Of a stretch of 64,000 nucleotides of DNA, positions 2,337-30,306 are shown piece after piece. The notes beneath the pieces were generated by a model that saw only the letters and a list, made by a program, of their open reading frames with translations, was not told the DNA's origin and searched no databases. How positions within the stretch are numbered: position 1 is the first letter of the stretch; every line of letters starts with the position of its first letter. The translations under genes were made by a program, and so were the position numbers. This stretch comes from an uncultured virus (IMG/VR IMGVR_UViG_3300019885_000016) (Duplodnaviria > Heunggongvirae > Uroviricota > Caudoviricetes): IMG/VR virus record IMGVR_UViG_3300019885_000016; one strand, written 5' to 3'.

Positions 2337-3377
2337 TTAAGCGGTTTTCTCTTCCTCTGTGACAATCTTGCGGCAAAGCGTCACGGAATCCACCGCTTTA
2401 CGTCTCATCTCAGGCGTGGCGTGGGTATACTTGGCAGTCATACGCGCGCTGCTATGTCCCAATAGTGACTGTATGGCTGTTTCATTGAATCCTTGCTCTG
2501 CTAAACGGGTTGCGAAGGTGTGACGCAGATCGTGGAAGCGGCAATCAAATACCTTTGCGTCCTTTAGAGCTTTCCTGAACTGCTTTTCAAACCACGAAGT
2601 CTCAAACCCTCTCCCGAACAATCTCTCACCCGAAGATTCTTCCAGAAGTAATCGAACGACTTCGGACGCTTCACTATTTAGCGGAATGACTTTCTTCTTT
2701 CTTTCCTTTGTCCTCTCAGGCGGTAAGACTATTTCATTTGATTCAAGGTTCACTTCAGAGCGTCTTAGCCCTAAGATTTCGTTCAGCCTCATTCCCGTCA
2801 GTAAGCCAAGATCGAACACAGGAATGAGAGCCGGGTTTAGATGCTCGCGTATCCTCACTTCTTCATCTTCAAAGAGGTATCTTTCGCGCTGTTCGCCCTG
2901 TAGGAGCCTTTTCACCTTAGAGAGCGGGTTATCATTCGTGTAGCCGTTCTCTATCGCCAGAGTGAAGATGCGGTTAAGCACGGCCAAGTCCTGATTGACT
3001 GTCGAGGCTTTACGAACCCCGCGATTTGTAGGAGTCTCGCGCCTCAGTTTTTTGAACTTCTCTAAGAGCATGGGTGAAATCTGTTGAAACGTCCTCTGAC
3101 TGAAGAAGTCACAGAAGACTTTGCATTTCTGCTCATCCTCTTTCCACTTCTTTCTATTAGCCCTACAGTATGGCTTGAACACCTCTTCAACAAATGCAGA
3201 AAAGAGCGTGTTCCTGTTGTCACGCCCATATCTGCCTTCGTAGATTGACTGCCTGACTTGCGCCTCTACCTTTAATGCCTGTTGTTTGTTTTGAGCCTCT
3301 GGAATAGAGCCGCGATACCTGACCCTGCGGATCATAAGGTCAAATTGCCAGCGACTCTTGCGTTTCCTCACTGTCAT
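2337..3377 (-). CDS. int: Tyrosine recombinase / phage integrase
   Basis: TGMRLNE, FHDLRHTFAT, LGHSS, KYTH catalytic motifs; RBS AAGGGAG before ATG 3377. Confidence 0.97.
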   Translation of the reverse strand: MTVRKRKSRWQFDLMIRRVRYRGSIPEAQNKQQALKVEAQVRQSIYEGRYGRDNRNTLFSAFVEEVFKPYCRANRKKWKEDEQKCKVFCDFFSQRTFQQISPMLLEKFKKLRRETPTNRGVRKASTVNQDLAVLNRIFTLAIENGYTNDNPLSKVKRLLQGEQRERYLFEDEEVRIREHLNPALIPVFDLGLLTGMRLNEILGLRRSEVNLESNEIVLPPERTKERKKKVIPLNSEASEVVRLLLEESSGERLFGRGFETSWFEKQFRKALKDAKVFDCRFHDLRHTFATRLAEQGFNETAIQSLLGHSSARMTAKYTHATPEMRRKAVDSVTLCRKIVTEEEKTA

Positions 3378-3597
3378 AGATTCTCCCTTTCCGGGTCGCG
3401 CCGTAAAGGAGGGGCGCATCATATTGAAGTGCGGCGCGAGAATCAATCTCTTTCAGGGCAAAGGCGGGAATCATTGAAACCGACTGACCATCTACAAGGA
3501 AATAGTATCGCTCGCCAAGCCATGCTATTGCTGCAACTTTCCCGCGAAAGCCGTTGTAGTCCACCCACGTCCCAAGAGGTAGTAGTTCGTCTTTCAT
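3340..3597 (-). CDS. Phage hypothetical protein
   Basis: ORF coupled to the excisionase gene. Confidence 0.6.
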   Translation of the reverse strand: MKDELLPLGTWVDYNGFRGKVAAIAWLGERYYFLVDGQSVSMIPAFALKEIDSRAALQYDAPLLYGATRKGRIYDSEETQESLAI

Positions 3598-3929: not shown

Positions 3930-4118
3930 CTACCGCTTATCCTTCCATGCCCAAAAATAGTCCATCATTTCCCGACACTTGGCGCGAAGTTCGGCGTCGG
4001 AGGAACAGAGGTAAACTTTGAATAATCCATTCATCGCCTCTGTTGCGCCTTCATAAATCTCTTTTGTGTACCGCTCACCGGACAGCTTGAGTTCTGCTTT
4101 TGCCTGTGTGTCATTCAT
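3930..4118 (-). CDS. Phage hypothetical protein
   Basis: 62-aa ORF in leftward operon. Confidence 0.55.
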   Translation of the reverse strand: MNDTQAKAELKLSGERYTKEIYEGATEAMNGLFKVYLCSSDAELRAKCREMMDYFWAWKDKR

Positions 4119-4381
4119 GGGTCAACCTCGGCTTTCAAGCGGGCGTTTAACGTGGCGAATGTGTTCTTGCCTGACGTGGATAAACTCGTTGTCAATGCTG
4201 CACAGACCACTGGCGTAGATTGAGCGAATTATGTAGTGCTTTCCAACGCTCGGCTTGTTAGTGTAATCAATCGCGCGAATCTTTTCGGGTATCACCTCAA
4301 CCATGTCGCCCACTTTGAAAATTTCCGGCATCGTAGTTACCTCGCAAGAGAATCCCTGCCTTTAAGGCGCGGAGCATTCAA
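4119..4381 (+). mobile_element. Degenerate IS200/IS605-type mini-element A (left-end hairpin deleted, right end intact)
   Basis: TCAT 4115-4118; AACCTCG then GCTTTCAAGCGGGCGTT (17-nt identity with 8485-8501); right end GAAT 4350-4353, hairpin, TCAA 4378-4381. Confidence 0.6.
4122..4331 (-). CDS. Passenger of element A; small SH3/KOW-like protein
   Basis: FKVGDMVEV start; RBS GAGGT next to right-end hairpin. Confidence 0.65.
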   Translation of the reverse strand: MPEIFKVGDMVEVIPEKIRAIDYTNKPSVGKHYIIRSIYASGLCSIDNEFIHVRQEHIRHVKRPLESRG

Positions 4382-4432
4382 TGATTAGCGAGCCTCAGAA
4401 GCGTCGCGGCATGGCATAAATCAGGCTCACCC

Positions 4433-4627
4433 TCATCGGCTTTGCCCGACAATGCCCTTCGCTTTAACCACTTTTGCTTTCTCTAGCAACCTAATGGCTC
4501 GGCGCACGTCTTCCGCGCCAAGCACTCCCATACGATGGAGATTGTCTTGAACATGCGGGCCTTTCAAGCAATACAACGCGCCCCAAATCGCATCCTCAGC
4601 CGAAAGAGTCTCTTTTTCTTGCGTCAC
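4433..4627 (-). CDS. Phage hypothetical protein
   Basis: GTG start with GGAGG RBS. Confidence 0.6.
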   Translation of the reverse strand: MTQEKETLSAEDAIWGALYCLKGPHVQDNLHRMGVLGAEDVRRAIRLLEKAKVVKAKGIVGQSR

Positions 4628-4678
4628 GATTGTGCCTCCAAAGAAGCCCTCGCGTTGAAGACGCGGGGAGTGTTTGAT
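4624..4678 (+). repeat. Solitary IS200/IS605-type end hairpin
   Basis: TCAC, 15 nt, GAAG, hairpin CCCTCGCGT-TGAAG-ACGCGGGG. Confidence 0.55.
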
Positions 4679-5071
4679 GCGGCTTGTAGATTAAAGCCTT
4701 TGGTTCGCTTGCGTTGGATTCTTTCAGGCATGCGTTACCTCATTTAATTTCCGCACAGCTTCATCCAGTGTCACTGTGTACTCTTCTATCTCTTCGTCTG
4801 AGGCGTAACAGCCTATGCAGTATTCAGGTGAGTCCTTGTGCCTGAGAAATGATTCACGCTCGAATTTACAATTCTTGCAGATGAATGTTTCTTCCATTGT
4901 TATTCTCCAAATGGCTCTCAATTACCTCTTTAGCTGACTTGATCTCGCTCATTGCAAGTTCGTAGTCGGGGTGATTCTCCGGTATGTGGTAATCAATTAT
5001 CTGCTTCAAAGTAGAAGCGAGGTTGTTTAGTGCAATTATTAGATTGTCTTCCATTTTCCTTTTCCATTTGT

Positions 5072-5347
5072 TTACAAAGATTTCCTTATTACATTTTCAA
5101 CATGCTTCACTGACACACGATGCTTCTCTGCTATCCGCTCAAAGTTCATCCCACTAAGAAACTCCAATGCTATGAGAATGTGACTGTATCGTTCGGGATA
5201 TACAGATTGTGAACTCATAGAAAAGAATTGAGAGCGTCCGTAATAATGGGCAGGTCTATCACAGGAAGGAACTCCGTTGTCGAAGTTGCCCGCACGCGCG
5301 CCGCACATCTTTCCAGACTTTAATATTGCATGGCATTTGAGATTCAT
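5072..5347 (-). CDS. Hypothetical protein with Cys/His N-terminus and C-terminal HTH-like segment
   Basis: C...C...C..H; MNFERIAEKHRVSVKHVENVI. Confidence 0.55.
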   Translation of the reverse strand: MNLKCHAILKSGKMCGARAGNFDNGVPSCDRPAHYYGRSQFFSMSSQSVYPERYSHILIALEFLSGMNFERIAEKHRVSVKHVENVIRKSL

Positions 5348-5358
5348 GTTCTATTCAT

Positions 5359-5895
5359 CAGAACTCACAAGGAGACTCTCTCATTTATGTGAGAGAGGAA
5401 TTGTGTCCACCGCGAAACTGCTTTCAAAGTTTCGCATCAACTAGACAAGCCTCTATCTCAGCAACGGACGCGCGACGTACAGCCATGTAACTTTTTCGTC
5501 GTAATCTCCTACGTAAGTACCTGTGTCGCCCGTCGAGCAGTAAGTTTTCTGGGCTTACAATGCCCGGACATTCCGGGTCACACAGGAGGAAACGTACAGG
5601 GCTAAATGACCAATGATAGCGGTCTGCGCCCTTGATTTTTGAAATTGGTAAGTATTCAATAGGTGCTTTTTCAAGGAGCCAGATTAAGTTGTGAATTTTT
5701 ATCCTGCGTCCATCATGCAGAGTTTTCGTGTGGAATAAAAAGCTATATCGTCTAGGCTGTGTAAGTTTGCGCTGCCAGCCTAAAACAAAGCCTACGGTAA
5801 GACCGAATAGCAAGCCTAAACTAACGTGCAAAAGCCACCACATAAATTAAACCTCACAAATGAAACCGCGTGTTTCTAACGCGGGGAGACTTCAT
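5359..5895 (+). mobile_element. IS200/IS605-type non-autonomous mini-element B
   Basis: Target TCAT 5355-5358; guide GAGA 5372-5375; hairpin 5376-5397; second hairpin with GCTTTCAA loop 5412-5435; right end GAAA 5862-5865, hairpin, TCAT 5892-5895. Confidence 0.75.
5424..5843 (-). CDS. Passenger of element B: N-terminal membrane anchor plus ParB/Srx-like motif
   Basis: Hydrophobic N-terminus; PGIV...LLDGRHR. Confidence 0.65.
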   Translation of the reverse strand: MWWLLHVSLGLLFGLTVGFVLGWQRKLTQPRRYSFLFHTKTLHDGRRIKIHNLIWLLEKAPIEYLPISKIKGADRYHWSFSPVRFLLCDPECPGIVSPENLLLDGRHRYLRRRLRRKSYMAVRRASVAEIEACLVDAKL

Positions 5896-5934
5896 CCACC
5901 CTTCAGTAATCAACAGAAAGAAGTTTAATCAATC

Positions 5935-6123
5935 TCACTCCGCTTCTCCTGCCCACAAAACCTGCACGGCCTTTTCCTCATCCAAGCCTCTGTATAAGGT
6001 CTGCGTATTCCTTTTGCCGAACTTACGTTGGTAAACAATGAACTCGCCCGCGTTTACTACAACCCACCTGTCTTCAAAGGTAATCCGTACATTCTCAACC
6101 GACAGAAATTCTATAATTGTCAT
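5935..6123 (-). CDS. Phage hypothetical protein
   Basis: ATGA-coupled ORF with GGAGG RBS. Confidence 0.55.
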   Translation of the reverse strand: MTIIEFLSVENVRITFEDRWVVVNAGEFIVYQRKFGKRNTQTLYRGLDEEKAVQVLWAGEAE

Positions 6124-6483
6124 GCGTGCCTCCGTGCTTCTCTCACTCTCCCCAAATGAGCTACGTTGACCTTCTCTCTTAACGTATAAGATGGATGAAA
6201 CGTAATCAACGAGCGGCCAGCAGAGAGGTCTTCAAGGATGCCTTCAAGAAATATTCGTGATTCGGAATGAGTGAAGATGGTTTCATCTTTAACTATGCAC
6301 CATCTCATACCGTATTCGTTGGTGACTCTACGTTCTATCTTGAAACTCGTTTGACCTCCGCTTGTTTCGCTAACCACTCATCCTCATCTTCGGTATAGCC
6401 TTCACCGCCGCAACCGTAGCAGACGCGGGTTGCTAGTTGGCTAGAGCATTTTGGGCAATCGTCGTCGCTATATTCCCAATCGT

Positions 6484-7479
6484 TCATACAATCGCTTCAG
6501 ATTCTTTCTTCTCAACCTCAGAATGAAACAAAGTCAATTCACGCTCAGAGTGTTTGCCGCTCAGGTAATCTTCCCAAGTAATGAATTGGTAGTAGCGTCT
6601 GACTACCCACCGTTGAAACTTTTTCAGCGTCTTGTTTTCTTGGTCGTAGACCATTGGATAAGGTAATAGCTTGGCCTCGTCCATCTTCTGAAATCTGTAA
6701 TAGACATCTTCAAATGTTTCGTTAGGCCAGTATCCGCAGAGCATGTAAACGAGAATGTGATTAGGTCGTATGCCCGCTTTGGTTAAGATTTCTATTCCAT
6801 TGAAAAACACCTTTTCATCTCTGCGGTTGTCCCAAGCCGTGTAAATCCTTTTCGTCTTAAACTGGTCGTCGCGGTATTTCATCCTTGCGAGATAGCTTGC
6901 TCCGTCCTCATGTATCAATCGAACATTGATGCCCTGATTGAAACAGACCTCGAACCCACCTTGAGTGATTTCCTCTGCTCTATCTTTCCATCCTTCTTGA
7001 CCAAAGAAATCATTGTCTAAAAGGTGAATCTGTTTCGGATGACCACCACCGCGCCAGATGTCGTTGATTGTGTTCAGACCTCTGACTTTGCCCTCTTTTT
7101 TAGGAACTACGCAGAATGAGCATTTGAGCCGACAGCCCCTTTGTGTGAATCCTATTGAATGAGGAAATTCGGGATAATCTGAATAGTCATAAAACTCGTA
7201 TTCGCTTATCCCGAGAAAGTCTTCAACCGTTTCAAAGTCATCCGTTCCTGTCCCTCTAACAACGGCCTCTGGAAAGTTTCTTTTGAACGTCTCGGCTTTC
7301 TTTGTAGAGAAATTGAATATCTGGCTTCCTAAAACTAAATCGTATTCAGGCTCAAACAATCCGCGTGTGGCAGACTTGGTTAGAATCACTTCCGCGCCGT
7401 TTGAGCGGTAGAAGTGGGCAAGCTTCATCAAAGCCAGATTGGGTAACTTGCCGTCTAATTGTGTGAGCCTGATTTTCAA
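6484..7479 (-). CDS. Radical SAM protein
   Basis: RGCRLKCSFC (CxxxCxxC), LLDNDFF, PNLALMKL N-terminus. Confidence 0.9.
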   Translation of the reverse strand: MKIRLTQLDGKLPNLALMKLAHFYRSNGAEVILTKSATRGLFEPEYDLVLGSQIFNFSTKKAETFKRNFPEAVVRGTGTDDFETVEDFLGISEYEFYDYSDYPEFPHSIGFTQRGCRLKCSFCVVPKKEGKVRGLNTINDIWRGGGHPKQIHLLDNDFFGQEGWKDRAEEITQGGFEVCFNQGINVRLIHEDGASYLARMKYRDDQFKTKRIYTAWDNRRDEKVFFNGIEILTKAGIRPNHILVYMLCGYWPNETFEDVYYRFQKMDEAKLLPYPMVYDQENKTLKKFQRWVVRRYYQFITWEDYLSGKHSERELTLFHSEVEKKESEAIV

Positions 7480-7874
7480 AACGGTGTTACCTCAATCTCT
7501 CCAACTTCTACATTCTCAGAATGAAACTTATTGAATACTCTCTTGTAGTAGGCCATCCGTCCCTTACCAGCTTTACCTGTAGCGATATTTAATCTCTGTT
7601 GATTAAACCGTTCGTGTGACTCATTACTCCATTGTCTTGCTAATGCAGGGAAAGATATTGCCAGTGCTAATGCCACATGACTACACGGTGTATCAGATAG
7701 GCCAGCAGGACAGGAACAGGTTGCGCCGTCTTCTTCCATGTGAACGAAATGCCACTCGCCTTTATGAGAGAAGCTAGATACTTTCCAGTGGATGCCAAAG
7801 GGAGTTATTTCTAGTTGGCGATCTTGGGCTTTCTCGTATTGAAGAGATAGTGATTTATTGTTTCGGACTATCAT
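7476..7874 (-). CDS. SWIM zinc-finger protein
   Basis: CSCPAG...PCSH. Confidence 0.75.
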   Translation of the reverse strand: MIVRNNKSLSLQYEKAQDRQLEITPFGIHWKVSSFSHKGEWHFVHMEEDGATCSCPAGLSDTPCSHVALALAISFPALARQWSNESHERFNQQRLNIATGKAGKGRMAYYKRVFNKFHSENVEVGEIEVTPF

Positions 7875-8422
7875 GCTGCTCTCTCAGTGCGTCCGAACAA
7901 GCTTAAGGCGTCAGTCATTCGCTCAATCGGAAGTTGCAGGACATACTTGCCGGTATCAGTCCATCCGACATATTCAAATCCAATTTGCTGGTATGAATAG
8001 CCCCAAGACATCTCAGAGCCTTCTTTTGTTCGTTTGACGAAGCCTGAAACCTTTCGTGGGTCAATCATCGTAACCATGCCTAAACTCGGCTCATCATAGC
8101 CACGCCACTTGTTTGCAACTGTTCGATACCAGCGCGTGAGTGCAATGGCTTCCAAAATCAAGTCGCTTGATAGAACGGTTGATTCATTTCTGAATAATGA
8201 ATTGTCCCAAGCGTCCGGCCATGCGTGCTTGATTAAATGCGGATAAGGCCAACTTGTGACCCAGACCGCTCCATACTCAAATTGATCGGGAATCTCTAAG
8301 CCCAAGACGAGACAGCGACCGGGCTTGACGAACTGTGAACTATCAGGCGTTTGGCAAGAGTAGTGCCTTTTAGCCAGAATGTTGGCTCTGGGGTCTGCTC
8401 TGTGTGATAATCGCCAGTTCAT
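7871..8422 (-). CDS. Conserved phage protein, possibly a Mom/GNAT-like DNA-modification enzyme
   Basis: RADP...RHYS, PGRCLVL, WVTSWP, FRNE motifs; family assignment from memory only. Confidence 0.45.
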   Translation of the reverse strand: MNWRLSHRADPRANILAKRHYSCQTPDSSQFVKPGRCLVLGLEIPDQFEYGAVWVTSWPYPHLIKHAWPDAWDNSLFRNESTVLSSDLILEAIALTRWYRTVANKWRGYDEPSLGMVTMIDPRKVSGFVKRTKEGSEMSWGYSYQQIGFEYVGWTDTGKYVLQLPIERMTDALSLFGRTERAA

Positions 8423-8921
8423 CAAAACCTCGCAGGAGACTCTAGGATTTATCCTAGAGAGGAATGCGTAGCCACTTAGCCCGCGCTTTCAAGCGGGCGT
8501 TCCAAGTTGCGCTATTGCGGCTCACGTCGAAGTTCGGCCTGATTCTTAGCCTCAATCCTATCTTCGACGGCACGCTGCAAATCTATCGTGCGACCTGGAC
8601 AGGTGTTAGCCATACGGAGAGCGCACACAACCAAATCAGCGACGTAACGGTCAACTTCGTCGAGCGTGAACTCACTCCCGCCATGCTCCGCATCGTTTAC
8701 GACGGCGGCGAGTTTGCCGCTCGCCTTCTGAACGTGAAGCAAGGCGTGGGCAAAATCTTTGTGCGTCATGGGCGACGAACGAAAATCCCTGTGATAGTGA
8801 ACCGTCCAGGGTAATTGAGTTTGCAGTTCTCTAAGTGTCAAATCCTTAGCCATGTGTTTCACCTTTCAAGTTTCGGTTAATTCTGTAGAATCCCCTTCTT
8901 TGGAAGTGGGGGAGCATTCAA
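8423..8921 (+). mobile_element. IS200/IS605-type non-autonomous mini-element C
   Basis: Target TCAT 8419-8422; guide GAGA 8436-8439; hairpin 8440-8459; second hairpin with GCTTTCAA loop 8479-8498; right end GAAT 8888-8891, hairpin, TCAA 8918-8921. Confidence 0.8.
8512..8862 (-). CDS. Passenger of element C; MazG-like all-helical protein
   Basis: HALLHVQKASGKLA...VADLVVCALRMAN...IDLQRAV resembles the MazG fold but lacks the canonical acidic motif. Confidence 0.55.
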   Translation of the reverse strand: MKHMAKDLTLRELQTQLPWTVHYHRDFRSSPMTHKDFAHALLHVQKASGKLAAVVNDAEHGGSEFTLDEVDRYVADLVVCALRMANTCPGRTIDLQRAVEDRIEAKNQAELRREPQ

Positions 8922-9080
8922 CTCCCCTCTCTTTCGTATTCCCCAAAAAAAAAAAATACTTAAATATCGGTGCTAGCTGTTGAATCTCCGCTAGAGAATT
9001 TGATAAGCGAACTTCTGTTTCCACCTGGTACGCCTCACTAATATCGAAACGGGCTTCGTCTTCTTTAGTGGGGAAGCGGG

Positions 9081-9488
9081 CTAGACATCTTTCAAATTGA
9101 AAACGATGCCGCGACACCACTTCCGACCGTCTTCCAGAATGTCAAATGTGGTGTGTGGTATTTCCGTTTTGAAAGTCCAGGCGTAAGGCGGCTCTTGATT
9201 CCACAGTCCCTCAATCTTCTTCGCGTGCTTCTTACGCTTAAACCATTCCTCTAACTCGTCGTCATCATCAATAGAGTCGCGGTCTGGCAATAGCCCACGC
9301 TCGTCTACTAACACGGTGGCGGGTGAGCCGGATTCATCGTCTATCGCTCCGCGAAATTCCATAAGGTCGTCCGAAGCGCCGAACACTACTACGAGGCCAC
9401 ATTCCTCGGCTGTGGTTACCAGTTCCTCTGAAATCTCTTCACCGTACTCGTTGTTGTTGAGTATTCGCGCCAACTCGAATTTGTTCAT
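9081..9488 (-). CDS. Conserved acidic phage hypothetical protein
   Basis: GLVVVFGASDDLMEFRGAIDDE...IPHTTFDI...CRGIVF. Confidence 0.8.
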   Translation of the reverse strand: MNKFELARILNNNEYGEEISEELVTTAEECGLVVVFGASDDLMEFRGAIDDESGSPATVLVDERGLLPDRDSIDDDDELEEWFKRKKHAKKIEGLWNQEPPYAWTFKTEIPHTTFDILEDGRKWCRGIVFNLKDV

Positions 9489-9844
9489 CTCATCTCCTAA
9501 AGTTAGAGTGCGTATCCTTGTTCTCGCATCTCTGAATTCATAGATTCATAAAGTTGGCCGTCAAACGCAGACATCGTTTTCAGACTCGCGGTCGCCAAAT
9601 GCTTCAATCTCAGATTGCAAGAGTTGATCCAACTCGGATGCGGTCATTTCGTCTCCGTCAGAACAAACGTAAACGTCTCAATATAGACATGCACGTTCTC
9701 ATCATCGGTAATGTCATAGGTGAAGAAGCGTTCACCCCAGATGAGTATTCCAGGCGGCTCGTTAAACTTCGGAATAGTCCCACTTGTCACGTAACCGCCG
9801 TCTGCTGTTAGAAGTCTTACGTTGTCCATCTTGTCTCCCCTCAT

Positions 9845-10075
9845 CTATGCGGCCACCTCCATACTTAATTTCTCAAAACAGGCTTTGCAGCGAGTGGCTA
9901 TATCCACGAAGAGGCGAGGCTTATAGTTTGTAGAGTAGACGGACATTTCATAATATCTTTCGCCCGTCTGTATCTTTCGCTTGCCACATGCGCCACGACA
10001 GAATTTGTCTTTCCCGCGACCGCTCTTTGTGTGCGTCTCGGCTGTCGTGGTGTCTATCATTCTGTTGCTTAACAT
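9845..10075 (-). CDS. Small Cys-rich (zinc-binding) protein
   Basis: CRGAC and CKAC. Confidence 0.55.
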   Translation of the reverse strand: MLSNRMIDTTTAETHTKSGRGKDKFCRGACGKRKIQTGERYYEMSVYSTNYKPRLFVDIATRCKACFEKLSMEVAA

Positions 10076-10410
10076 TTGATCTTGCCTCTTGTAGAAATTA
10101 CGACGCGAGTTTTAGTTAACCCTTTTCTTGTCTCTCGCTTCTCCGCACCGTTGGCACTCGCGCACCTGCTTGCTGTGGGCGAAACCGCCAACATTGCGCT
10201 CGTCTATTAGTTGTGTCGTCGGGTTGATGTGCCCCTGCGAGCAGGCCCACGCATCTAAGGCGGGACAGTCGGGTTGACGCTTATGTGCGCCGTGATACCC
10301 TGAACGCACGCTGTATGCACCGTTGAAATGTCGCCCCACCTTCTTTTCTCCTTTTGTGTGAAATAGCTTCCCAGTGTCTAGTAGTCTGCGCTTTTGTAAA
10401 AAGGTATGCC

Positions 10411-11232
10411 TTACTCTGTTATGTCCAGCCAGCGACTTCCTTGTGTTTTGAATCTGATACAAGCTTCAACACAGATTTCAGCCGCAAGGGATAGAATCTT
10501 GTCGCGCTCGCTGGCTGCATCGCTGGCTGCGCGGGCTGCACAGCTGGCTGCGCTGGCTGCATAGCTGGCTACGCGGGCTGCAGCGCGGGCTGCACAGCTG
10601 GCTGCGCTGGCTGCACAGCTGGCTGCGCGGGCTGCACAGCTGGCTGCGCGGGCTGCATCGCTGGCTGCACAGCTGGCTGCGCGGGCTGCACAGCTGGCTG
10701 CGCGGGCTGCAGCGCTGGCTGCACAGCTGGTTGCGCGGGCTGCATCGCTGGCTGCACAGCTGGCTGCGCGGGCTGCATCGCTGGCTGCACAGCTGGCTTC
10801 TTTCGTCCCTTCCTCCTCGCACTTGTTCGCAGCATCGCGCAGTGCTTTTTGGTGTGTCTTATCAGGATGGACTTTCGCGGCTACGCGCAAAGACAAAGGA
10901 ACGATGCGACGAATCACTTGCTCAGAGACGTAAGTAATCCATGCGACCTCGTCAACACCCGTGCTGCCGAGTTGAGCTATAGCCGCACGCCGCATCCCTT
11001 TTGTGCGCGCATCGTTTGTAGACCATTGAGCATCATTGAGGCCGATCTTGTATGTGCGAATCACCGGCGCAACGCACTTCGGTTTATCGCCATGCTTATA
11101 TCCGAGTGCATAACAGATTGCAGCTTCTACACAGAATTTACCCGGCTCTGGCACGCCCAATCCCGCAACCAAACCTTTGTCCACTACTTCTAAAACTTTT
11201 CGTGCGTCGCGTTTTGTTAGATTTGTGCTCAT
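10411..11232 (-). CDS. First gene of the leftward operon; contains an Ala-rich tandem repeat
   Basis: AAGGAG RBS; (AASC/AASD/AAR)n region. Confidence 0.8.
   Translation of the reverse strand: MSTNLTKRDARKVLEVVDKGLVAGLGVPEPGKFCVEAAICYALGYKHGDKPKCVAPVIRTYKIGLNDAQWSTNDARTKGMRRAAIAQLGSTGVDEVAWITYVSEQVIRRIVPLSLRVAAKVHPDKTHQKALRDAANKCEEEGTKEASCAASDAARAASCAASDAARATSCAASAAARAASCAARAASCAASDAARAASCAARAASCAASAASCAARAAARVASYAASAASCAARAASDAASERDKILSLAAEICVEACIRFKTQGSRWLDITE
10509..10797. repeat. In-frame tandem repeat of mixed 9- and 12-bp units
   Basis: GCTGGCTGCACA, GCTGCGCGG and GCTGCATCG units. Confidence 0.9.
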
Positions 11233-11319
11233 TTAGTTTCTCCTTTGTGGATGTGAAATAGCTTCTTTAGTCTTAAATGGGGTTTTAACCTTTGTGCCCT
11301 ACCCCTTAAAGACAAGCGT

Positions 11320-11347
11320 ATTATAGCAAAGTTTGCAAGAATTGCAA
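11320..11347 (-). promoter_or_regulatory. Leftward early promoter with overlapping candidate operator
   Basis: Minus strand TTGCAA-16-TATAAT with extended TG; TTGCAA-N3-TTGCAA at 11333-11347. Confidence 0.75.
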
Positions 11348-11527
11348 AGCCCTTTCGTAAAGAAATGTTTTTATACCGATTTTTGCTAGGAAATTTGAGG
11401 ACTATTCAGAGTTTGCGTTTTGTTGGAGTGGGTATTAGATGTGTGAGGCAAAAAGCAGTGTAATAATAAATGCGCCAACCTTCACGGCATTGCCTTTTCT
11501 TTGCGAGATTTGTGTTAGGAACAAATT

Positions 11528-11794
11528 TTATTCACAGTACCGCCAATAGGCCGGACGATACCCTTGCTCTTGAGCTTTCCTCTGTGTGGTGTAGAATCCT
11601 TCTCTCGTTCGTCCATACCACTGTGAGCCGGGACACCAATAGATTCCAGATCGAGTATTTACCCAGACCTGTACGTTTGGATTGCCTTGCCTCTGCGTGG
11701 TGACTTCTGCGCTGGCGCTCTTGAATGTCGCCGGAGCGGTTGAAGTACATGCAAGGGCGATTGAAAGGAAGAGAATTGAGAGCAGTTTTTTCAT
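11528..11794 (-). CDS. Small exported protein/lipoprotein with VWVNTRSGIY..PGS.WYG.T domain
   Basis: Signal peptide with ALAC lipobox-like sequence; Ada-metal-binding-like GYRPA ending. Confidence 0.75.
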   Translation of the reverse strand: MKKLLSILFLSIALACTSTAPATFKSASAEVTTQRQGNPNVQVWVNTRSGIYWCPGSQWYGRTREGFYTTQRKAQEQGYRPAYWRYCE

Positions 11795-12204
11795 GGCGAG
11801 CTACCTTTCTTACTTAGAACGAACGCGAGGCTTTGATTGACTCGAACGAACACTAATTCTACTTGAACGGGGCGATCTGGAAATTGGTAAGTGAAGCTAA
11901 ATACCTCTGTCGGTCTGTTGCTATTTAGAAATTCAGTGAATCTACCTTTGAATTGTCTTACATCCGAACAAGGCGCTATTTCGGTAAAGAAGTTTCGACC
12001 AATAACATCTTGCGCGTGGTGGTCTGATAGTTCTTCTTCCGCGCGATTAAATTCCAGAATCTTTCCAGAGGCATCTAATTCAATTGCGCCATAAGGAAGC
12101 TCATCCAACTGCTCTGCTGTTAGAGAGGGAACACTCAAGGCTTTCCTATAACACTCTTCGCAGATTTTCCCTTTAGACGACTTCCCACACCACGCGCAGG
12201 TCAT
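11791..12204 (-). CDS. pyp: Photoactive yellow protein (PYP)-family PAS domain with N-terminal CxxC-CxxC zinc finger
   Basis: Gapless match to PYP: QLDELPYGAIELDASGKILEFNRAE...VIGRNFFTEIAPC; Cys69 and Glu46 equivalents retained. Confidence 0.88.
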   Translation of the reverse strand: MTCAWCGKSSKGKICEECYRKALSVPSLTAEQLDELPYGAIELDASGKILEFNRAEEELSDHHAQDVIGRNFFTEIAPCSDVRQFKGRFTEFLNSNRPTEVFSFTYQFPDRPVQVELVFVRVNQSLAFVLSKKGSSP

Positions 12205-12875
12205 GCGGCGTCCTCTGCTACTGCCACCTTCGGCAGATCAATCGTCCTTATCACCTTGACGAGAACAGCGTAAGGCTCAACCTTTTTTCGAGGGATTCTC
12301 ACAGTCTCGTAATCTTCATTCTCCGGCTTTAACTCAACCTTGTTTCCGCTCTGATGCCAGCGCTTCAGCGTAGCCTTGCGGTCAATGCCCTCTCTGATGT
12401 AAGCAACAACTATCTGATTTTGAGGTTCAGCCGGCGGGTCTGCCACAATAATAATGTCGCCATCTTGAATGTTGGCGTCCTTCATGCTGTCGCCAACGAC
12501 ACGTAAGGCGTGTGCATTGCGAGTTCCCGCAATGTCGGACTCAAAGACGTAGATAGTCTCAGCATCATCAATCGTCTCAATTGGCTTTCCCGCCGAAATA
12601 CGACCTTTTAGATGCAACGGAACTACGCGCGGGCATCGCTCATCTTCGGGCGGCTCAAACAGTTGCTTGTCCTTACGCGAGGCAGCCGCGCCCCGCTCCA
12701 TGAGCGCGCGTGATACCTCAGTAATTGTCCGCCGGTCTTTCTTCACCCAATACTCAATTACTTCGTAAACGTCATCGGGTACGCGAAAGGCCGGGACTGT
12801 TTTATTAAGCCCCTTCGCCACAAGCGCAACATTCTCAGAGTTTGTAGCTGTAGACAAGGAATGTTTTGTTTGCAT
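12201..12875 (-). CDS. Prophage repressor: RHH-like N-terminus plus LexA/CI S24 autopeptidase
   Basis: ISAG cleavage site, GDSM serine, ATLKR lysine; N-terminal AFRVPDDVYEVIE...RRTITEVSRALMERG. Confidence 0.9.
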   Translation of the reverse strand: MQTKHSLSTATNSENVALVAKGLNKTVPAFRVPDDVYEVIEYWVKKDRRTITEVSRALMERGAAASRKDKQLFEPPEDERCPRVVPLHLKGRISAGKPIETIDDAETIYVFESDIAGTRNAHALRVVGDSMKDANIQDGDIIIVADPPAEPQNQIVVAYIREGIDRKATLKRWHQSGNKVELKPENEDYETVRIPRKKVEPYAVLVKVIRTIDLPKVAVAEDAA

Positions 12876-12887
12876 ATAAAATACCTC

Positions 12888-12915
12888 TTGCAATATTTGC
12901 AAATCTGTGCATAAT
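12888..12915 (+). promoter_or_regulatory. Rightward early promoter with overlapping candidate operator
   Basis: TTGCAA-16-CATAAT; TTGCAA-N3-TTGCAA at 12888-12902. Confidence 0.7.
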
Positions 12916-12926
12916 CGGAAATCGAC

Positions 12927-13109
12927 GTGAGGAAAGATAAAGACAAAAAAGAGCCAGAGCCGCGATTGACGGTGACTCTACCAGCAACGCGGGTGACAGA
13001 AGATGTCGCAGCCTTTCTTGAGCGCAAGCGACAAGCTGAGCGTCGCCACAAAATAAGCGACACAGTAAGAGCCGTTCTGGAAGAGGCGGCAGAGCAAAGC
13101 GCAGCATGA
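12927..13109 (+). CDS. Cro-position ribbon-helix-helix regulator
   Basis: Divergent from the repressor; ATRVTEDVAAFLE...KISDTVRAVLEEA. Confidence 0.7.
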   Translation: MRKDKDKKEPEPRLTVTLPATRVTEDVAAFLERKRQAERRHKISDTVRAVLEEAAEQSAA

Positions 13110-13648
13110 ACATACAAGACGTTTCCATAGCAGACATAATAATTGGCGAGCGCCGGAGAAGTGACTACGGCGACATCCAACAACTAGCGGACTCTATCAC
13201 CGCGCGTCAACTCTTACACCCTATAACCGTAGTGCGCGAGGGCAATAAGTTCCGGCTGGCTGCCGGTGAGCGTCGTATAAGAGCCTTCCAGCTTTTAGGT
13301 CTTACTGAGATACCCGCCAAAGTGTACAGCGAACTCTCGGAAGAAGAGTTAAGGGCGATTGAATGGGAAGAGAATCGGCAGCGCAAAGACCTCACCATTG
13401 AAGAGTCCCGAAAATTAGTCCAAATCGCGCAAGATGCTGAAAAAGCAATAACTTCCGAATTTCCGTCCACGATGGACGAAAAATCAAAGGCCACGCGCAC
13501 GGAAGATTCGCGCACGCCAAAGGGCAGGCCGGAGACGGCGGACAAATTAAGAGTTTCGTTGCGCGAGATTGAAGAGAAAAACCCTTCGTTATTAAAGCTC
13601 GCTCAACAACGCGCATGGGAGCGTGGATTACTTTTTGACAAACCATAG
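13106..13648 (+). CDS. ParB/Spo0J N-terminal domain protein
   Basis: LADSI...LLHPITV...AGERRIRA...EENRQRKDL. Confidence 0.88.
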   Translation: MNIQDVSIADIIIGERRRSDYGDIQQLADSITARQLLHPITVVREGNKFRLAAGERRIRAFQLLGLTEIPAKVYSELSEEELRAIEWEENRQRKDLTIEESRKLVQIAQDAEKAITSEFPSTMDEKSKATRTEDSRTPKGRPETADKLRVSLREIEEKNPSLLKLAQQRAWERGLLFDKP

Positions 13649-14035
13649 GTGGTCGAGACCGACTGTAGGTGGCGCTACTTAATTGGTCGGGGCGTGGGAA
13701 GCGGGCGGAAAGCTAACCCACTATTTCAAATATCAGTTCTTTCAAAAGTTTGCCGTGACGCCTTCGGGCGTGTGCATTGTTTATCAATTCTTTGCGCTAC
13801 TTCGGTGAAAGCCGGAGACACGGCATCAGTTCTTTGAGATTGCGGGAGACAGAGGCATCAACTCATTCCTGCTCATGGACTATGAGTAACCCTGGATGAG
13901 TTTCCAAGAACTCTGAGGTGCAACACTATGGCAACTAAAAAAGGCTCAAGAGTTTTTGTTTCTGTCTCCGCAATGATTTAAGGCTTAGACGCCTGCTTTG
14001 TTTCGTTTGAATCCTTTGGTTGCAGGTACACGGTA

Positions 14036-14254
14036 ATGTGGCAATACACACGCGGCAGACAGGTTTACATACTTTCCCTTCTGTCCCTGCACGTCTGGAA
14101 AGAAACTCGGTGGCACGCAAAAATCTGCAACGCTGGACGGTATAAAAGCTGGCCTTTGTCGGAGACGTTCGACACAGAAGAAGAGGCCAAACAAGCTGCG
14201 ACTAAGGCCGCAATCGGACTATTGAAAGAGCACATCAAGAAACTTGAAGCTTAG
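14036..14254 (+). CDS. Phage hypothetical protein
   Basis: 72-aa ORF in rightward operon. Confidence 0.5.
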   Translation: MWQYTRGRQVYILSLLSLHVWKETRWHAKICNAGRYKSWPLSETFDTEEEAKQAATKAAIGLLKEHIKKLEA

Positions 14255-14296
14255 CATTTTGAATCTCTCGCTAAACGCTAACGAAAGGTAAATCCA

Positions 14297-14467
14297 ATGA
14301 GTGACAGCAAAGGTTCAACGGCGGCAAGTAGCGGCATCTCTCTAGGTGCTGCTCTTGCCGTGTCCATCTCTTGGAGTCTCTATCATTCAATCATGTGGGC
14401 AATCATTCACGGCATTTTCAGTTGGGGCTACGTCGTTTATTACTGTTTCCAAAGTGGGCGATTGTAG
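14297..14467 (+). CDS. 56-aa membrane protein (not in ORF track)
   Basis: Manual translation: MSDSKGS...GISLGAALAVSISWSLYHSIMWAIIHGIFSWGYVVYY; AAAGGT RBS. Confidence 0.75.
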   Translation: MSDSKGSTAASSGISLGAALAVSISWSLYHSIMWAIIHGIFSWGYVVYYCFQSGRL

Positions 14468-14991
14468 CGCGCGGACGCGGGGATTCAAGCGAATCACCAA
14501 CAACGTCTTAATCCTTAATTGTCAAACAACTATTTATTCTCGAAAGGCCACAGAATGCCCAAAGAAACAACCAAACCACAAGTACACAAGATGCTGGTGA
14601 TCTTCGGAGAAGACGGGTCTATGCACTTCGCGCCCGACGAGTCGCCCGACCTGCCAGACAACATTGAAGACGGCGTTGATGATAACGGCATTGTTGAGGG
14701 GCATATCGTTGAAACCTTCTATTGCGCTTTCAAGGACATGATCGAAGGTGACGGCTATCTCCGCGTCGTTGGAGATAACGATTTTACGGACGTTGAGATA
14801 CGCATACCTTTTGACCTCTTGCGCGCACTTGGCTGGCAAAAGAACGACCACGCCAGCGCGGTTAGCGGGAACAACTCGGATGCACCAATGCAGGCCAGCG
14901 TCTTAACCTGATATTTGATTATCAATTTATTTGAAGAGGCTTAGACCCGTGTTTCCACCTCTTCCATACGCCAACCGCAACGGAGAAATTC

Positions 14992-15630
14992 ATGCACAAC
15001 CTGGATAAAGTCCAAGACTACATCAAAGCGCACGCTAAATACGACACGCAACGCAATTATCTAGGAATGTCTGGCATAGGGCGTTGCCCTCGCCAACTCT
15101 ATGAGAATTTCCTGAGTCCTACTCAGCCCACAGAAGAAACCTATCGGAGTTGCTATCTCGGCTACCTTTGGGAGCGCGAAGCCAAAATCATTCTACAAGG
15201 TGCGGGCGTGTTTGAGTTCGATTCCGAGCGCGAACTAATTGCACCTTTTGACCCTCGTTTCATAGGCCACACGGACGGTGAAACCGCTCAGGGTGATTTA
15301 CTGGAAATCAAGTCTGTCACGCAAAGGGCAATGGACAAGATAAAGTCGGAGAACCGCATCAAGCGTGCCCACTTCTACCAAGTTCAGACCTACCTGAGAT
15401 ACGGCGATTATAGGCAGGCGTTGGTAACTCTTGTTTGCCGTGACCCAATGGAGTTCCACTTTATTCCAGTTCCCCGCGTTGAATCCGTTGGCGAGAGCAT
15501 GGAAAGAAAAGCTAAGACCGTGCTAGCGGCGATTGATGCCCGCTCGCGCCCCGCGTGCGAATGCGGATATTGCGGAGTTTCAAAGAGCTTTAGTGGGGCA
15601 TCTTGCACAAATGCCCCTTTACGCCAATAG
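14992..15630 (+). CDS. Cas4/AddB-like PD-(D/E)XK nuclease (solo, no CRISPR array)
   Basis: SGIGRCPRQ, GHTDG, LEIKS, QVQTY, CECGYC (1+3 Cys Fe-S pattern). Confidence 0.85.
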   Translation: MHNLDKVQDYIKAHAKYDTQRNYLGMSGIGRCPRQLYENFLSPTQPTEETYRSCYLGYLWEREAKIILQGAGVFEFDSERELIAPFDPRFIGHTDGETAQGDLLEIKSVTQRAMDKIKSENRIKRAHFYQVQTYLRYGDYRQALVTLVCRDPMEFHFIPVPRVESVGESMERKAKTVLAAIDARSRPACECGYCGVSKSFSGASCTNAPLRQ

Positions 15631-15742
15631 CTTATTAGCGCTTACAACCGATTGTGTAAATGAACACTTTTTGTTCACCAATTGAAAGATACGCCAATGA
15701 TTTTTGATTCTCTAGTCTAAATATCAAGGAAATATCTTACCA

Positions 15743-16195
15743 GTGAGACACGAACGACCTCTTACACCTGAGATTGAGAACATCCTGCGCGACCGGACTA
15801 AAGTGATGGCGCATGAGATGGACGTTGACCGCTCATACTTAGACGGCATTTTATCAGGATACAGAGCAGACCCACTTGCCCACCTGATACCGATATTCAA
15901 AGCAACCTGTCGAACTGATTTATCACTAGCCCGCCCTGTATTAGACCGTCTTAATTCCATCTATGAAGCGGAAGTCGGAAGAGAATCGAAAAGGTCAGAC
16001 TTCCATCTTCAATTAGGCATGGCGATGGATAGATACAGCAAGATCATAAACAAGTTGGGCGTAAGACGTATCAACGAATTGAGCAGAGAAGAGAAGGAAG
16101 TAATAAGAGGTTGGACGGCTTCAATGTCCAGCTTCACTCAGATGGCAGAGGTTTTTGTAAGTGATTCTTTACAGGAAGAAATGGTGAGCAAGTGA
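15743..16195 (+). CDS. Phage hypothetical protein, possibly regulatory
   Basis: HTH-like KVMAHEMDVDRSYLDGIL. Confidence 0.55.
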   Translation: MRHERPLTPEIENILRDRTKVMAHEMDVDRSYLDGILSGYRADPLAHLIPIFKATCRTDLSLARPVLDRLNSIYEAEVGRESKRSDFHLQLGMAMDRYSKIINKLGVRRINELSREEKEVIRGWTASMSSFTQMAEVFVSDSLQEEMVSK

Positions 16196-16608
16196 TGTCA
16201 GCAAGAATAGCAGAAAGAACTTGGACTTGTGATTGCTGCGGCCTTGAGAACGACCAGCGCGGCTGCGTCAAAGGCTCTCCGCAATGCGTGTGTTATCACT
16301 CTGGCCTCAAGACGCAGATTCACTCACTAAGCCCTGATTTCTGTATCACCTGCGGTCGCTGCGCTCTCCACTGCACAGGCTCACGCTTTTATGAAGAGCC
16401 AAACGATTTTGATAAGAGATTTAGATTCTCGTCAAACGCTCCCATTCAGAAAGATTCAAAGCCGCATCCATTTAGAGCAATAGGATTTTGTCACTGTGAG
16501 TCCGTTGCTGATTCTGAGTTAGTCAAGGAAGCGATTGTAGACGGAATACCTGAGCGAGATGTCCATGTAGTTTGCGGGAAGCGTTACATGCCTTTGGAGA
16601 ACGAGTAA
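16192..16608 (+). CDS. Cys-rich hypothetical protein
   Basis: Multiple Cys clusters. Confidence 0.6.
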   Translation: MMSARIAERTWTCDCCGLENDQRGCVKGSPQCVCYHSGLKTQIHSLSPDFCITCGRCALHCTGSRFYEEPNDFDKRFRFSSNAPIQKDSKPHPFRAIGFCHCESVADSELVKEAIVDGIPERDVHVVCGKRYMPLENE

Positions 16609-16814
16609 TGCCTATATCCACCGCACGCTCAGAGTTTACAGAAGACGTTCAGGACAAGGACGGCTTTAACTGCAACGGTTGCTATGAGCCGATTGTGCGC
16701 GGGAGTCGAATATTTACGAAAGACTATTTAACCAAACTTAACAAACCAGCAAAGGTAAGGCTTCATAACTTAGACGAGTGTTGGGAATCTTTTGTTGAAT
16801 GCTCCGCGCCTTAA
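16608..16814 (+). CDS. Zinc-binding protein truncated by mini-element D
   Basis: CNGC...H...C; terminal VECSAP is encoded by the element's right end. Confidence 0.6.
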   Translation: MPISTARSEFTEDVQDKDGFNCNGCYEPIVRGSRIFTKDYLTKLNKPAKVRLHNLDECWESFVECSAP

Positions 16815-17145
16815 AAGGCAAGGATTCTCTTGAGTAGAAACGGAGGTTGATTTGAGCAACGTAACGAGAATGTCTATACAGGAATTGCACGAGTCTATTG
16901 GTTTTGAGGACTCGCTTGTTGACGGCTCTGACGTTGACAGGCTTCTTAACGAACTGAGCGCACGGGGCGGAGCGGACGCGATTCTTGGCCGCTTCCTGCG
17001 TGACAAGCTTGCGGAGTATTGGTCAACCGTTGACCCTGAAAGTTGTATTGGCGACGAAAGTTGAAGCGCAATCTTGAAAGCGATTGCGCGATGGCTGCGG
17101 CTTCCTCCCCTGCATAAATGCAGAGGGGTCTCCGCCGAGGTTCTG
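16795..17145 (-). mobile_element. IS200/IS605-type non-autonomous mini-element D
   Basis: Minus strand: TCAT 17149-17146, GAGA 17132-17129, hairpin, second hairpin with GCTTTCAA loop 17089-17066; right end GAAT 16827-16824 to TCAA 16798-16795, nearly identical to 4350-4381. Confidence 0.82.
16852..17064 (+). CDS. Passenger of element D; acidic hypothetical protein
   Basis: GGAGG RBS immediately inside the right end. Confidence 0.6.
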   Translation: MSNVTRMSIQELHESIGFEDSLVDGSDVDRLLNELSARGGADAILGRFLRDKLAEYWSTVDPESCIGDES

Positions 17146-17217
17146 ATGATCGAGTCTGGCAACAGGCAGCGCGTAGAAGAGAGTTAGGGATACACCCGAA
17201 AAGGAGAAGGAAAAGCA

Positions 17218-26138: not shown

Positions 26139-26260
26139 AATTACTCCACGACTTCAAAAGGTAAGGGTTTCAAAGTCGTGGAGTTGTCGAGGGGTTGGGG
26201 TTGAATGCTCCCGCGCCACACAGTCAACGCTTCAACCTGGTGTCCGTTGCGATTGCACTT

Positions 26261-26677
26261 TCAAGCAATCGCCTTTAACGCCCAAAACGGACGGATAGGC
26301 AGTTGCTCGAATCGCGTGTTCGAGCAGTCGTACACGCTCTCACGCGAGAGGTCGAAATTTAACAACCGACCGTCCGCGCAGCATGCGTACAGTGCGTCGA
26401 CCTTGAAATAAAACAGTTCGCCGTCACGCTGCCTAGCGCGTGAAGTGAACAACGCAAAGTCGGTGCGTCGCGCAGTCTCGCGCAGGCGCAGGAAATCTGC
26501 GTAGTCGGAGATGACATATTCCGACAGCACGCGCAGGCGCGGCGGATTGTTGACAGGCTCTTCGTAGGTGCGACATTGGATTGTCAGGGGGTAAATCAGT
26601 TGCTTCTCAGCGAATAAGTAATCGTGCATCCACTCCAAGTGGATTTCGTGTGAATTTTTGATGCTACTGCTATCCAT
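26261..26677 (-). CDS. Moron hypothetical protein
   Basis: AAGGAG RBS. Confidence 0.6.
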   Translation of the reverse strand: MDSSSIKNSHEIHLEWMHDYLFAEKQLIYPLTIQCRTYEEPVNNPPRLRVLSEYVISDYADFLRLRETARRTDFALFTSRARQRDGELFYFKVDALYACCADGRLLNFDLSRESVYDCSNTRFEQLPIRPFWALKAIA

Positions 26678-30207: not shown

Positions 30208-30236
30208 ACTTTACTCTAAGTGTCGCACTTTGTCAA
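30208..30236 (-). promoter_or_regulatory. Sigma70 promoter of moron 2 with palindromic spacer
   Basis: TTGACA-17-TAAAGT; AAGTG-TCG-CACTT at 30218-30230. Confidence 0.75.
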
Positions 30237-30306
30237 GCGTTATTTCAACTATTTCCAGATTATTTTCCACCCCATTTCGTGTACTCAAACTAGAAAGGAA
30301 CTACGC

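Follow-up and report, generated by a model that had tools for sequence, protein, structure and literature searches.

Four elements with shared ends in a prophage

The window analysed here is the whole 64,000-nucleotide (nt) stretch of the uncultured virus record IMGVR_UViG_3300019885_000016 (IMG/VR; Caudoviricetes), a temperate prophage adjoining host DNA (guanine-plus-cytosine content 0.58 in bases 1-2000 vs ~0.48-0.50 in the neighbouring phage DNA). Three of its small genes, termed passengers B, C and D, each lie between a left and a right end resembling those of IS200/IS605 transposons, and the resulting units are called elements B, C and D; a fourth unit, element A, looks like a fossil of the same kind (Table 1). 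Read on what we call their top strand, B, C and D follow one plan: the tetranucleotide TCAT, a 13-nt leader (CARAAC plus 7 nt), GAGA, a first hairpin with a TTTA-containing loop, GAGGAA, about 15 nt, a second hairpin with a GCTTTCAA loop, the interior, and a right end made up of GAAT or GAAA, an imperfect hairpin, a short linker and TCAA or TCAT. This shared architecture had been described in an original prediction made from the letters of the window, and sequence, covariance models and a repeat search all agree with it; the start of B shifts trivially, from 5359 to 5358.

Covariance models of the left end (R1) and the right end (R2) were built from relatives. On the window, R1 gave exactly three strong left-end matches (90-102 bits; next best 22.5) and R2 exactly four strong right-end matches (49.9-54.7 bits; next 19.3). 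The shared ends were recovered independently by the repeat search (repeats D9, I7, I10 and I19), and GCTTTCAA has 11 matches in the window vs 4.8 expected, a count that none of 100 shuffles reached. Element A, which had been said to fit the same pattern, does so at its right end, which is intact (4350-4381). Its left end (4119-4147), compared by eye with that of C, retains a leader remnant and, of hairpin 2, the loop and the 3′ arm; the guide is deleted, as is hairpin 1, and R1 does not match. Since their guides and sites are intact, B, C and D look mobilisable, and A does not.

A further site at 26200-26290 was excluded from the element count as a possible degenerate relic. Its motif TTGAATGCTCC is the right-end terminus on the opposite strand, between convergent open reading frames (ORFs), and the site may be debris of one or two more elements.

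Each element holds one small ORF on the bottom strand. Those of A and B have no Pfam or PHROG match, and passenger B finds only itself among 5.8 billion proteins. Passenger C is a widespread phage gene (phrog_27761), with 11 homologs in other viral contigs at 61-92% identity; its DNA likeness to these spans exactly the ORF, 8512-8853, and the flanks of the homologs are ordinary operon junctions. Passenger D has a 75% DNA homolog in genome G180, ~2.3 kb from an autonomous element and with no ends flanking it. As the original prediction had stated, tnpA and tnpB were not found in the window by tblastn (best E 0.21 with five TnpA queries and 0.66 with three TnpB queries), and because the passengers show no likeness to TnpA or TnpB in this search they are not transposase remnants. 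In element C, ORFs of 116 amino acids (aa) occur on both strands, at 8464-8814 (+) and 8512-8862 (-), with a family match for the minus-strand ORF only.

Table 1. Elements, passenger genes and other features of the window, and related elements in other records. Gene names in the window were read from translations.
Feature	Position	Strand	Remarks
Element A, probable fossil	4119-4381	+	R2 49.9 bits (4342-4385); no R1 match
Passenger A	4122-4331	minus	69-aa ORF; runs into left-end remnant; stop 3 nt before ATG of next gene
Element B	5358-5895	+	probable complete non-autonomous IS200/IS605-family element; R1 90.2 bits (5351-5443), R2 54.0 bits (5854-5899)
Target/left cleavage tetranucleotide of B, TCAT	5354-5357	+	abuts left end; ATGA on operon strand; pairs with guide GAGA by the IS608 rule
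Passenger B	5424-5843	minus	139-aa ORF with N-terminal hydrophobic segment; antisense to top strand, co-oriented with leftward operon
Right end of B, GAAA-hairpin-TCAT	5862-5895	+	
Element C	8423-8921	+	probable complete non-autonomous element; R1 98 bits (8415-8508), R2 54.7 bits (8880-8925)
Target of C, TCAT	8419-8422	+	
Passenger C	8512-8853	minus	113 aa from ATG 8853 (longest ORF from GTG 8862); phrog_27761, E 5.5e-35
Right end of C, GAAT-hairpin-TCAA	8888-8921	+	
Element D	17145-16795	minus	probable complete non-autonomous element, in rightward operon; R1 102.4 bits (17153-17058), R2 50.7 bits (16835-16791)
Target of D, TCAT	17149-17146	minus	
Passenger D	16852-17064	+	70-aa ORF; antisense to top strand, co-oriented with rightward operon
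Right end of D, GAAT-hairpin-TCAA	16827-16795	minus	
Possible degenerate relic	26200-26290	+	end motif TTGAATGCTCC, then hairpin with ACTTTCAA loop; weak R1 match, 22.5 bits
Integrase	2337-3446	minus	heads leftward block of small genes, with excisionase-like gene
LexA/CI-type repressor	12201-12902	minus	faces rightward operon
ParB-like gene	starts 13106		first gene of rightward operon
Autonomous copies, provirus G003	L065:1566-2836, L066:1463-2676		
Autonomous copy, provirus G005	L070:4157-5256		
Autonomous copy, genome G010	L102:3394-4856		
TnpB copies	L107, L111, L113, L139		

Stems, guides and targets covary

Among 11 aligned left ends (alignment A1), 92.2% of stem cells are paired vs 61.3% after shuffling, a value reached in none of 500 shuffles, and 16 of the 20 stem pairs change on both sides, as the claim of stem covariation in the original prediction would have it. 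A control in which the partner columns were slid gave 32-51% pairing. Covariation extends to a third short helix, which joins the leader to the segment after hairpin 1 (both sides change in two of its four pairs). With fixed columns, pairing in the right-end stems is lower, at 69%, as the copies vary in their bulges. In all 13 aligned right ends (alignment A2), base 4 of the guide pairs with base 4 of the cleavage site, and this holds across three versions, GAAT/TCAA (8), GAAA/TCAT (3) and GAAG/TCAC (2); the pairs guide 1:site 2 (G:C) and guide 2:site 1 (A:T) are invariant.

Parsing of 42 left-end matches yielded 33 distinct copies, three copies being unfit for the parser and the rest duplicates. 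In 31 of these, a change of target goes with changes in the guide and in the second base 3′ of the hairpin (TCAT/GAGA/AG in 22 and TTAT/AAGA/AT in nine), the two exceptions being TTAT/GAGA/AG and TCAC/GAGA/AG. The tetranucleotide abutting the left end is T(C/T)AT in 32 copies and TCAC in one, and a fifth target base is nearly always A, so that the target is effectively TTCAT. Both ends contain subterminal imperfect palindromes with bulges or mismatches, on the same strand, and terminal inverted repeats are absent; past the right end, the flanks vary from copy to copy, and the target tetranucleotide is not duplicated at the other end.

IS608 and ISDra2 have the same organization, with subterminal imperfect hairpins on one strand, a 4-nt guide 5′ of each that pairs with the cleavage or target site (1:2, 2:1, 4:4), a second hairpin after the left-end palindrome, and a Y1 HUH transposase, TnpA, encoded by autonomous members. 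In the sections of the IS608 literature drawn on here, the left cleavage site (CL) is TTAC with guide (GL) AAAG, the right cleavage site (CR) is TCAA with guide (GR) GAAT, guide base 1 pairs with site base 2 and guide base 2 with site base 1, and the second, small left-end hairpin has a minor role (PMC5934647). The same sections give the pairs A+16:T-3 and A+17:T-4 and the triplets A+16:T-3:T+43 and A+17:T-4:A+42, whose third bases lie 3′ of the left hairpin (PMC5934647). The rule on which the original prediction leaned is thus in print, and it is obeyed, with covariation, in the 13 right ends and in 31 of the 33 left ends. To the extent covered by those sections, the right guide and site of IS608 are identical to the commonest right-end version found here, and its A:T+T triplet is that of the TTAT/AAGA/AT class; the target differs, being T(C/T)AT here and TTAC in IS608. 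As the covariation of target, guide and flank mirrors the IS608 triplets described there, the family repeats the IS608 recognition code. The three-way covariation can be read as a natural experiment on the TnpA code of guide, target and triplet.

Autonomous relatives and census of the family

A pattern scan of viral contigs found true left-end relatives in a few records, one of them provirus G003 with four copies. Loose patterns in these contigs are mostly chance matches, the left end being real in ~5 of 14 distinct contigs and the right end in 2 of 36 loci. When five records with true left ends were searched with Pfam Y1_Tnp, two matched, through three genes at 130-150 bits (best 149.8), each of them 600-800 nt inside a left end and in the same orientation. 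Y1_Tnp genes lie between homologous left and right ends in proviruses G003 and G005 and in genomes G010 and G180. An autonomous IS200/IS605 element with these ends had been named beforehand as deciding for the original prediction. The order in such elements is TCAT, the left end, a promoter-like site (TTGACA-N17-TAATAT), a small orf1, a helix-turn-helix (HTH) gene (HTH_17 or HTH_3), tnpA and the right end (GAAT-hairpin-AGGATTCAA or GAAG-hairpin-GGAGCATTCAC); tnpA is thus preceded by orf1 and an HTH gene, unlike in IS608 and ISDra2. The TnpA sequences show an H-V-H motif and, in KKYV..Q, a C-terminal Tyr.

A further difference from IS608 and ISDra2 is the concentration of the family in prophages of a single acidobacterial family. 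Genome loci that share the repeat elements of the window have the record titles of Pyrinomonadaceae (Acidobacteriota) metagenome-assembled genomes (MAGs). In one-per-species genomes, a strict left-end pattern matched 13 loci, 11 titled Pyrinomonadaceae and two only Acidobacteriota/Acidobacteria. R1 matched 25 of 151 sampled Pyrinomonadaceae genomes (the 25 including the unpublished G023), and on 150 other genomes across the phylum it gave just two weak matches. The flanks were phage-like in three of five genome loci scanned with PHROG profiles.

Pairing of R1 and R2 matches on one strand defined 35 complete elements, 26 from loci and nine new ones (plus one duplicate) from a metagenome scan. 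Five carry orf1-HTH-tnpA, four TnpB only (OrfB_IS605 with a Cas12f1-like TNB, two of the four having been scanned), one is decayed, two are empty (302 and 336 bp), and 23 carry as cargo a non-transposase ORF of 59-213 aa. Covariance models of the ends, which the original prediction had put forward as a way to copies with other passengers, therefore did retrieve them. Likeness between elements is confined to ~90 nt of left-end and 40-70 nt of right-end sequence, so that phages with no other relationship have just the ends in common, and the cargos are mutually unrelated except for one pair (G047a/G128). Where a cargo matches a known family, it is an ordinary accessory gene of phages: phrog_27761 (window C), phrog_12600, DUF1643, a DNA methyltransferase, and endonuclease VII or HNH-type zinc-ribbon proteins. 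Transposase genes lie on the top strand; the cargo ORF judged to be coding lies on the bottom strand in 23 of 23, co-oriented with the phage operon, so that the commonest form of the family, in contrast to IS608 and ISDra2, has a foreign gene on the opposite strand. The bracketing of such cargo by these ends suggests that a transposon family moves single accessory genes between phages.

Single genes between folded signals also call to mind integrons, in which a gene cassette is one accessory gene, mostly lacking a promoter of its own and expressed from one outside, with recombination signals that fold as single strands. Cassettes of an integron-like or other site-specific recombinase would explain one promoterless gene accompanied by imperfect, bulged hairpins, given that attC-type sites are recognised single-stranded. 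However, each gene here has two different ends rather than one attC, the copies are scattered at tetranucleotides with no array or attI, the window encodes no integrase besides that of the phage, which sits at the attachment end, the copies have no IntI-type gene in their vicinity, and the ends co-occur with HUH Y1 transposases instead of a tyrosine integrase. Of the explanations weighed, this is the least credible, with next to no probability.

One MAG, G009, has 13 R1 matches, many at contig ends, and no good Y1_Tnp gene was found in its assembly. Several of its copies (L085, L086, L087 and L091; e.g. L091:3816-4188, minus strand) consist of a left end, a TATAAT-like site and ~300 nt of conserved DNA with no ORF. 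They sit in host-chromosome sites and at many contig ends, and may be non-coding cargo or a collapsed repeat. The putative non-coding cargo (~256 nt) folds no better than shuffles (z -0.67) and has no Rfam match. The only Rfam matches in the G009 loci are tRNA and an Acido-Lenti-1 RNA (47.4 bits; L090:3835-3880), the latter ~140 nt outside a left end.

Signs of mobility

Several members of the family show the marks of movement. Genome G239 has two 326-bp copies, 100% identical, at ~117.5 kb and 2,204 kb (~2.1 Mb apart), and the DNA shared by three TnpB copies is confined within the element borders. The pair G047a/G128 has a common cargo and left end (67% over ~600 nt) with homology from the left-end border, in flanks that are unrelated by blastn and tblastx; G128 holds an extra small gene relative to G047a. 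In G001 (L059:10411-10822), a right end terminating in TCAT is directly abutted by the left end of the next element, as predicted by insertion 3′ of TCAT, and a similar junction follows TCAC in G002 (L063:15062-15189). The elements can therefore stack in tandem, the terminus of a neighbour serving as target. Window D shares 94.7% identity in its left end with a copy in provirus G003, one hairpin-2 pair being changed on both sides, and the two phages have no DNA similarity elsewhere.

The same ends could be immobile relics, in which resident phage genes that never moved are bracketed by the leftovers of separate insertions or deletions, the ends persisting by drift or through a role at the RNA level. 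Decay does happen in the family, as element A and the solo left end at 5151-5246 of G003 show; tnpA is absent from the window, neither an empty site nor a joint was found for its copies, and homologs of passengers C and D occur elsewhere without ends. Relics would not be expected, however, to keep left and right ends correctly oriented to each other in 23 of 23 cargo elements, guide/site complementarity in all aligned right ends and nearly all parsed left ends, the window cargo copies included, and stem pairing through compensatory changes, or to place homologous cargo in unrelated flanks with homology from the left-end border (G047a/G128). Taken together, this is the pattern that purifying selection for mobility would produce, and we consider immobile relics improbable, though the strongest of the alternatives.

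A number of observations nevertheless weigh against mobile elements in the window. None of the 11 homologs of passenger C has a left or right end within 2.5 kb (filters off), so that passenger C may have been in place before it gained its ends. For passengers A and B no homologs were found, and for D only at the DNA level; these three are called genes on ORF length, ribosome site and orientation only. If ORF length were the sole criterion, 20 of the 23 elements would have antisense cargo, with one tie (window C); L084 and G060b have a slightly longer, low-complexity ORF on the top strand. Genome G006 carries a cargo element, and no autonomous copy with these ends was found in that genome; likewise, no tnpA is known from the window's own host, whose genome is not in the data set. 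The cargo elements of the window are themselves single copies, and the evidence from unlinked copies comes from relatives only. No excision or circle joints were found in assembled contigs of two runs of the probable source soil sample (depth ~7), a negative that says little because contigs drop rare forms. Nor was an empty-site allele found for any window copy by DNA search of 401 Pyrinomonadaceae genomes, which returned nothing but element ends and some diverged genes, the window phage having no close relative among the records searched: blastn of window 4000-11900 against 50,697 phage records found no DNA relative, protein scans of viral contigs with the genes downstream of C and D gave zero and one weak relative, respectively, and G060 and G268 share some genes with the window phage and not the synteny around D. 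As no empty site was found, we infer from the behaviour of the family in relatives that the window copies arrived, or can leave, by transposition.

Orientation and reading frames in host operons

Wherever an element lies in the window, in the leftward or the rightward operon, its top strand is the non-coding strand of that operon, and the passengers, as the original prediction had it, lie on the opposite strand and are co-oriented with the operon in both. On the coding strand the left end reads GAGG-N5-6-|ATGA, the ATG being the reverse complement within TCAT. This junction ATG is the start of the next gene in C (7871-8422) and in A (3930-4118); in B it opens a 4-codon ORF overlapping the real start, and in D a 13-codon ORF. 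Over the family it opens at least 40 codons in 18 of 29 TCAT copies vs 42% of 733 ATGAA sites in the same loci (p 0.023). Statistically, the idea that insertion occurs at start codons is therefore weakly supported, the enrichment over this background being modest.

Elements with a transposase, or decayed ones, have a stop-free bottom-strand (operon-sense) frame in 10 of 10 cases, covering 74-93% of their length (756-1353 nt); of 2000 shuffles, one at most is as open. The frame ends at a TGA overlapping the junction ATG in five elements (G003IS1, G003IS2, G005IS, M139 and G123a, as read from the frame ends and tails). Among eight other Y1 transposase genes from the same host genomes, taken as a control, seven are open antisense over only 99-252 nt and one is fully open. 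We propose that polarity is avoided when ribosomes translate the element in the direction of the operon, a purpose that the cargo gene would serve in mini-elements.

Orientation that always follows the operon, a GAGG before ATG on the mRNA strand and the covarying helix between the leader and the segment after hairpin 1 (helix 1) would also suit phage mRNA elements, with hairpins acting as processing sites, stabilisers or translational operators of gene cassettes and no transposition. Rfam at gathering thresholds matched nothing in the window, which was counted in favour of this alternative. The same ends, however, bracket tnpA and tnpB genes, copies occur at host-chromosome sites outside operons (L091), and identical copies lie at unlinked loci. 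The joint change of target, guide and flank has no explanation at the RNA level, because the target lies outside the conserved unit. We therefore hold mRNA elements to be very unlikely.

Proposed mechanism and relation to known systems

We conclude, with a probability of roughly 0.8, that a family of IS200/IS605 type (HUH Y1, single-strand peel-and-paste), found mainly in Pyrinomonadaceae prophages, includes B, C and D as non-autonomous members and A as an inactivated copy; the original prediction was largely right. By analogy, a dimer of TnpA from an autonomous copy elsewhere would bind both top-strand hairpins in trans. The left end presented to it comprises T(C/T)AT, a 13-14-nt linker, the 4-nt guide, an imperfect hairpin, a 3′ flank that probably forms base triplets, and the second hairpin; the right end comprises a 4-nt guide, an imperfect hairpin, a short linker and the cleavage tetranucleotide. 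TnpA would then cut after the tetranucleotides chosen by the guides, and a single-stranded circle would be released and pasted 3′ of another TCAT. In place of a transposase, the interior holds one small phage gene which, being on the bottom strand, is read with the host operon. Because the left end offers GAGG five to six bases before the junction ATG, the gene downstream would probably keep a ribosome site.

Among the complete elements found, the gene-carrying mini-element is the commonest form (23 of 35). Rather more doubtfully, it may constitute a transposon-borne cassette system for phage accessory genes that is built for life in operons. Insertion would then occur just 5′ of ATGA on the coding strand, where the left end would hand the downstream gene its ribosome site; the right end, which begins TTGA or ATGA on that strand, could supply a stop or a start. 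The element would be kept translatable by its cargo or, in transposase copies, by the stop-free antisense frame ending at the UGAUG/AUGA junction, and, being translatable in the operon direction, its insertion would cause no polarity.

To our knowledge, IS200/IS605 elements are minimal transposons whose non-autonomous forms carry TnpB or IscB nucleases or nothing. Here, the ends of a family routinely bracket unrelated phage genes. No description of cargo elements of this sort in phages was found in the literature searched, a search in which subscription journals and ISfinder/TnPedia lay outside the scope and the slash in 'IS200/IS605' limits phrase matching.

Among the nearest published counterparts, in the portions of the literature considered, are palindrome-associated transposable elements (PATEs), which are non-coding, lack a transposase, have IS605-type ends and, it is presumed, rely on mobilisation in trans (PMC3119063, PMC10055086). 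As far as those portions describe them, PATEs and TnpB-only IS605 elements are like the window elements in lacking a transposase and keeping IS605-type ends; true PATE-like copies (302-336 bp) and TnpB-only copies occur within the same family. In contrast to PATEs so described, B, C and D each carry an intact, unrelated ORF (139, 113 and 70 aa) and are therefore not non-coding, and they differ from TnpB-only elements in that the genes carried are unrelated and on the opposite strand.

Phage morons and the mobile regulatory cassettes of T4 ('PeSL') are small accessory genes between conserved phage genes, with short conserved boundaries, and are thought to move by recombination. The boundaries of the window elements differ from these in being transposon ends with a defined cleavage grammar. 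If the proposed transposition is correct, it would provide a concrete, testable mechanism by which single moron-type genes hop between phage genomes at nucleotide precision, and the elements would be natural single-strand transposons with cargo, relevant to IS608-type programmable, DNA-guided insertion tools.

Other features of the window

Just 5′ of a lipoprotein-like gene (ATG 30308), 71 nt of the window (30229-30299) are 77% identical to the interior of a G003 autonomous element beside its left end, in the opposite orientation. Positions 10456-10821, inside an ORF at 10411-11232, contain dense periodic repeats of 9, 12 and 21 nt that encode Ala/Ser/Cys-rich repeats (AASCAARAAS...). The late region of the prophage contains a single ORF of 3813 aa, at 35334-46775.

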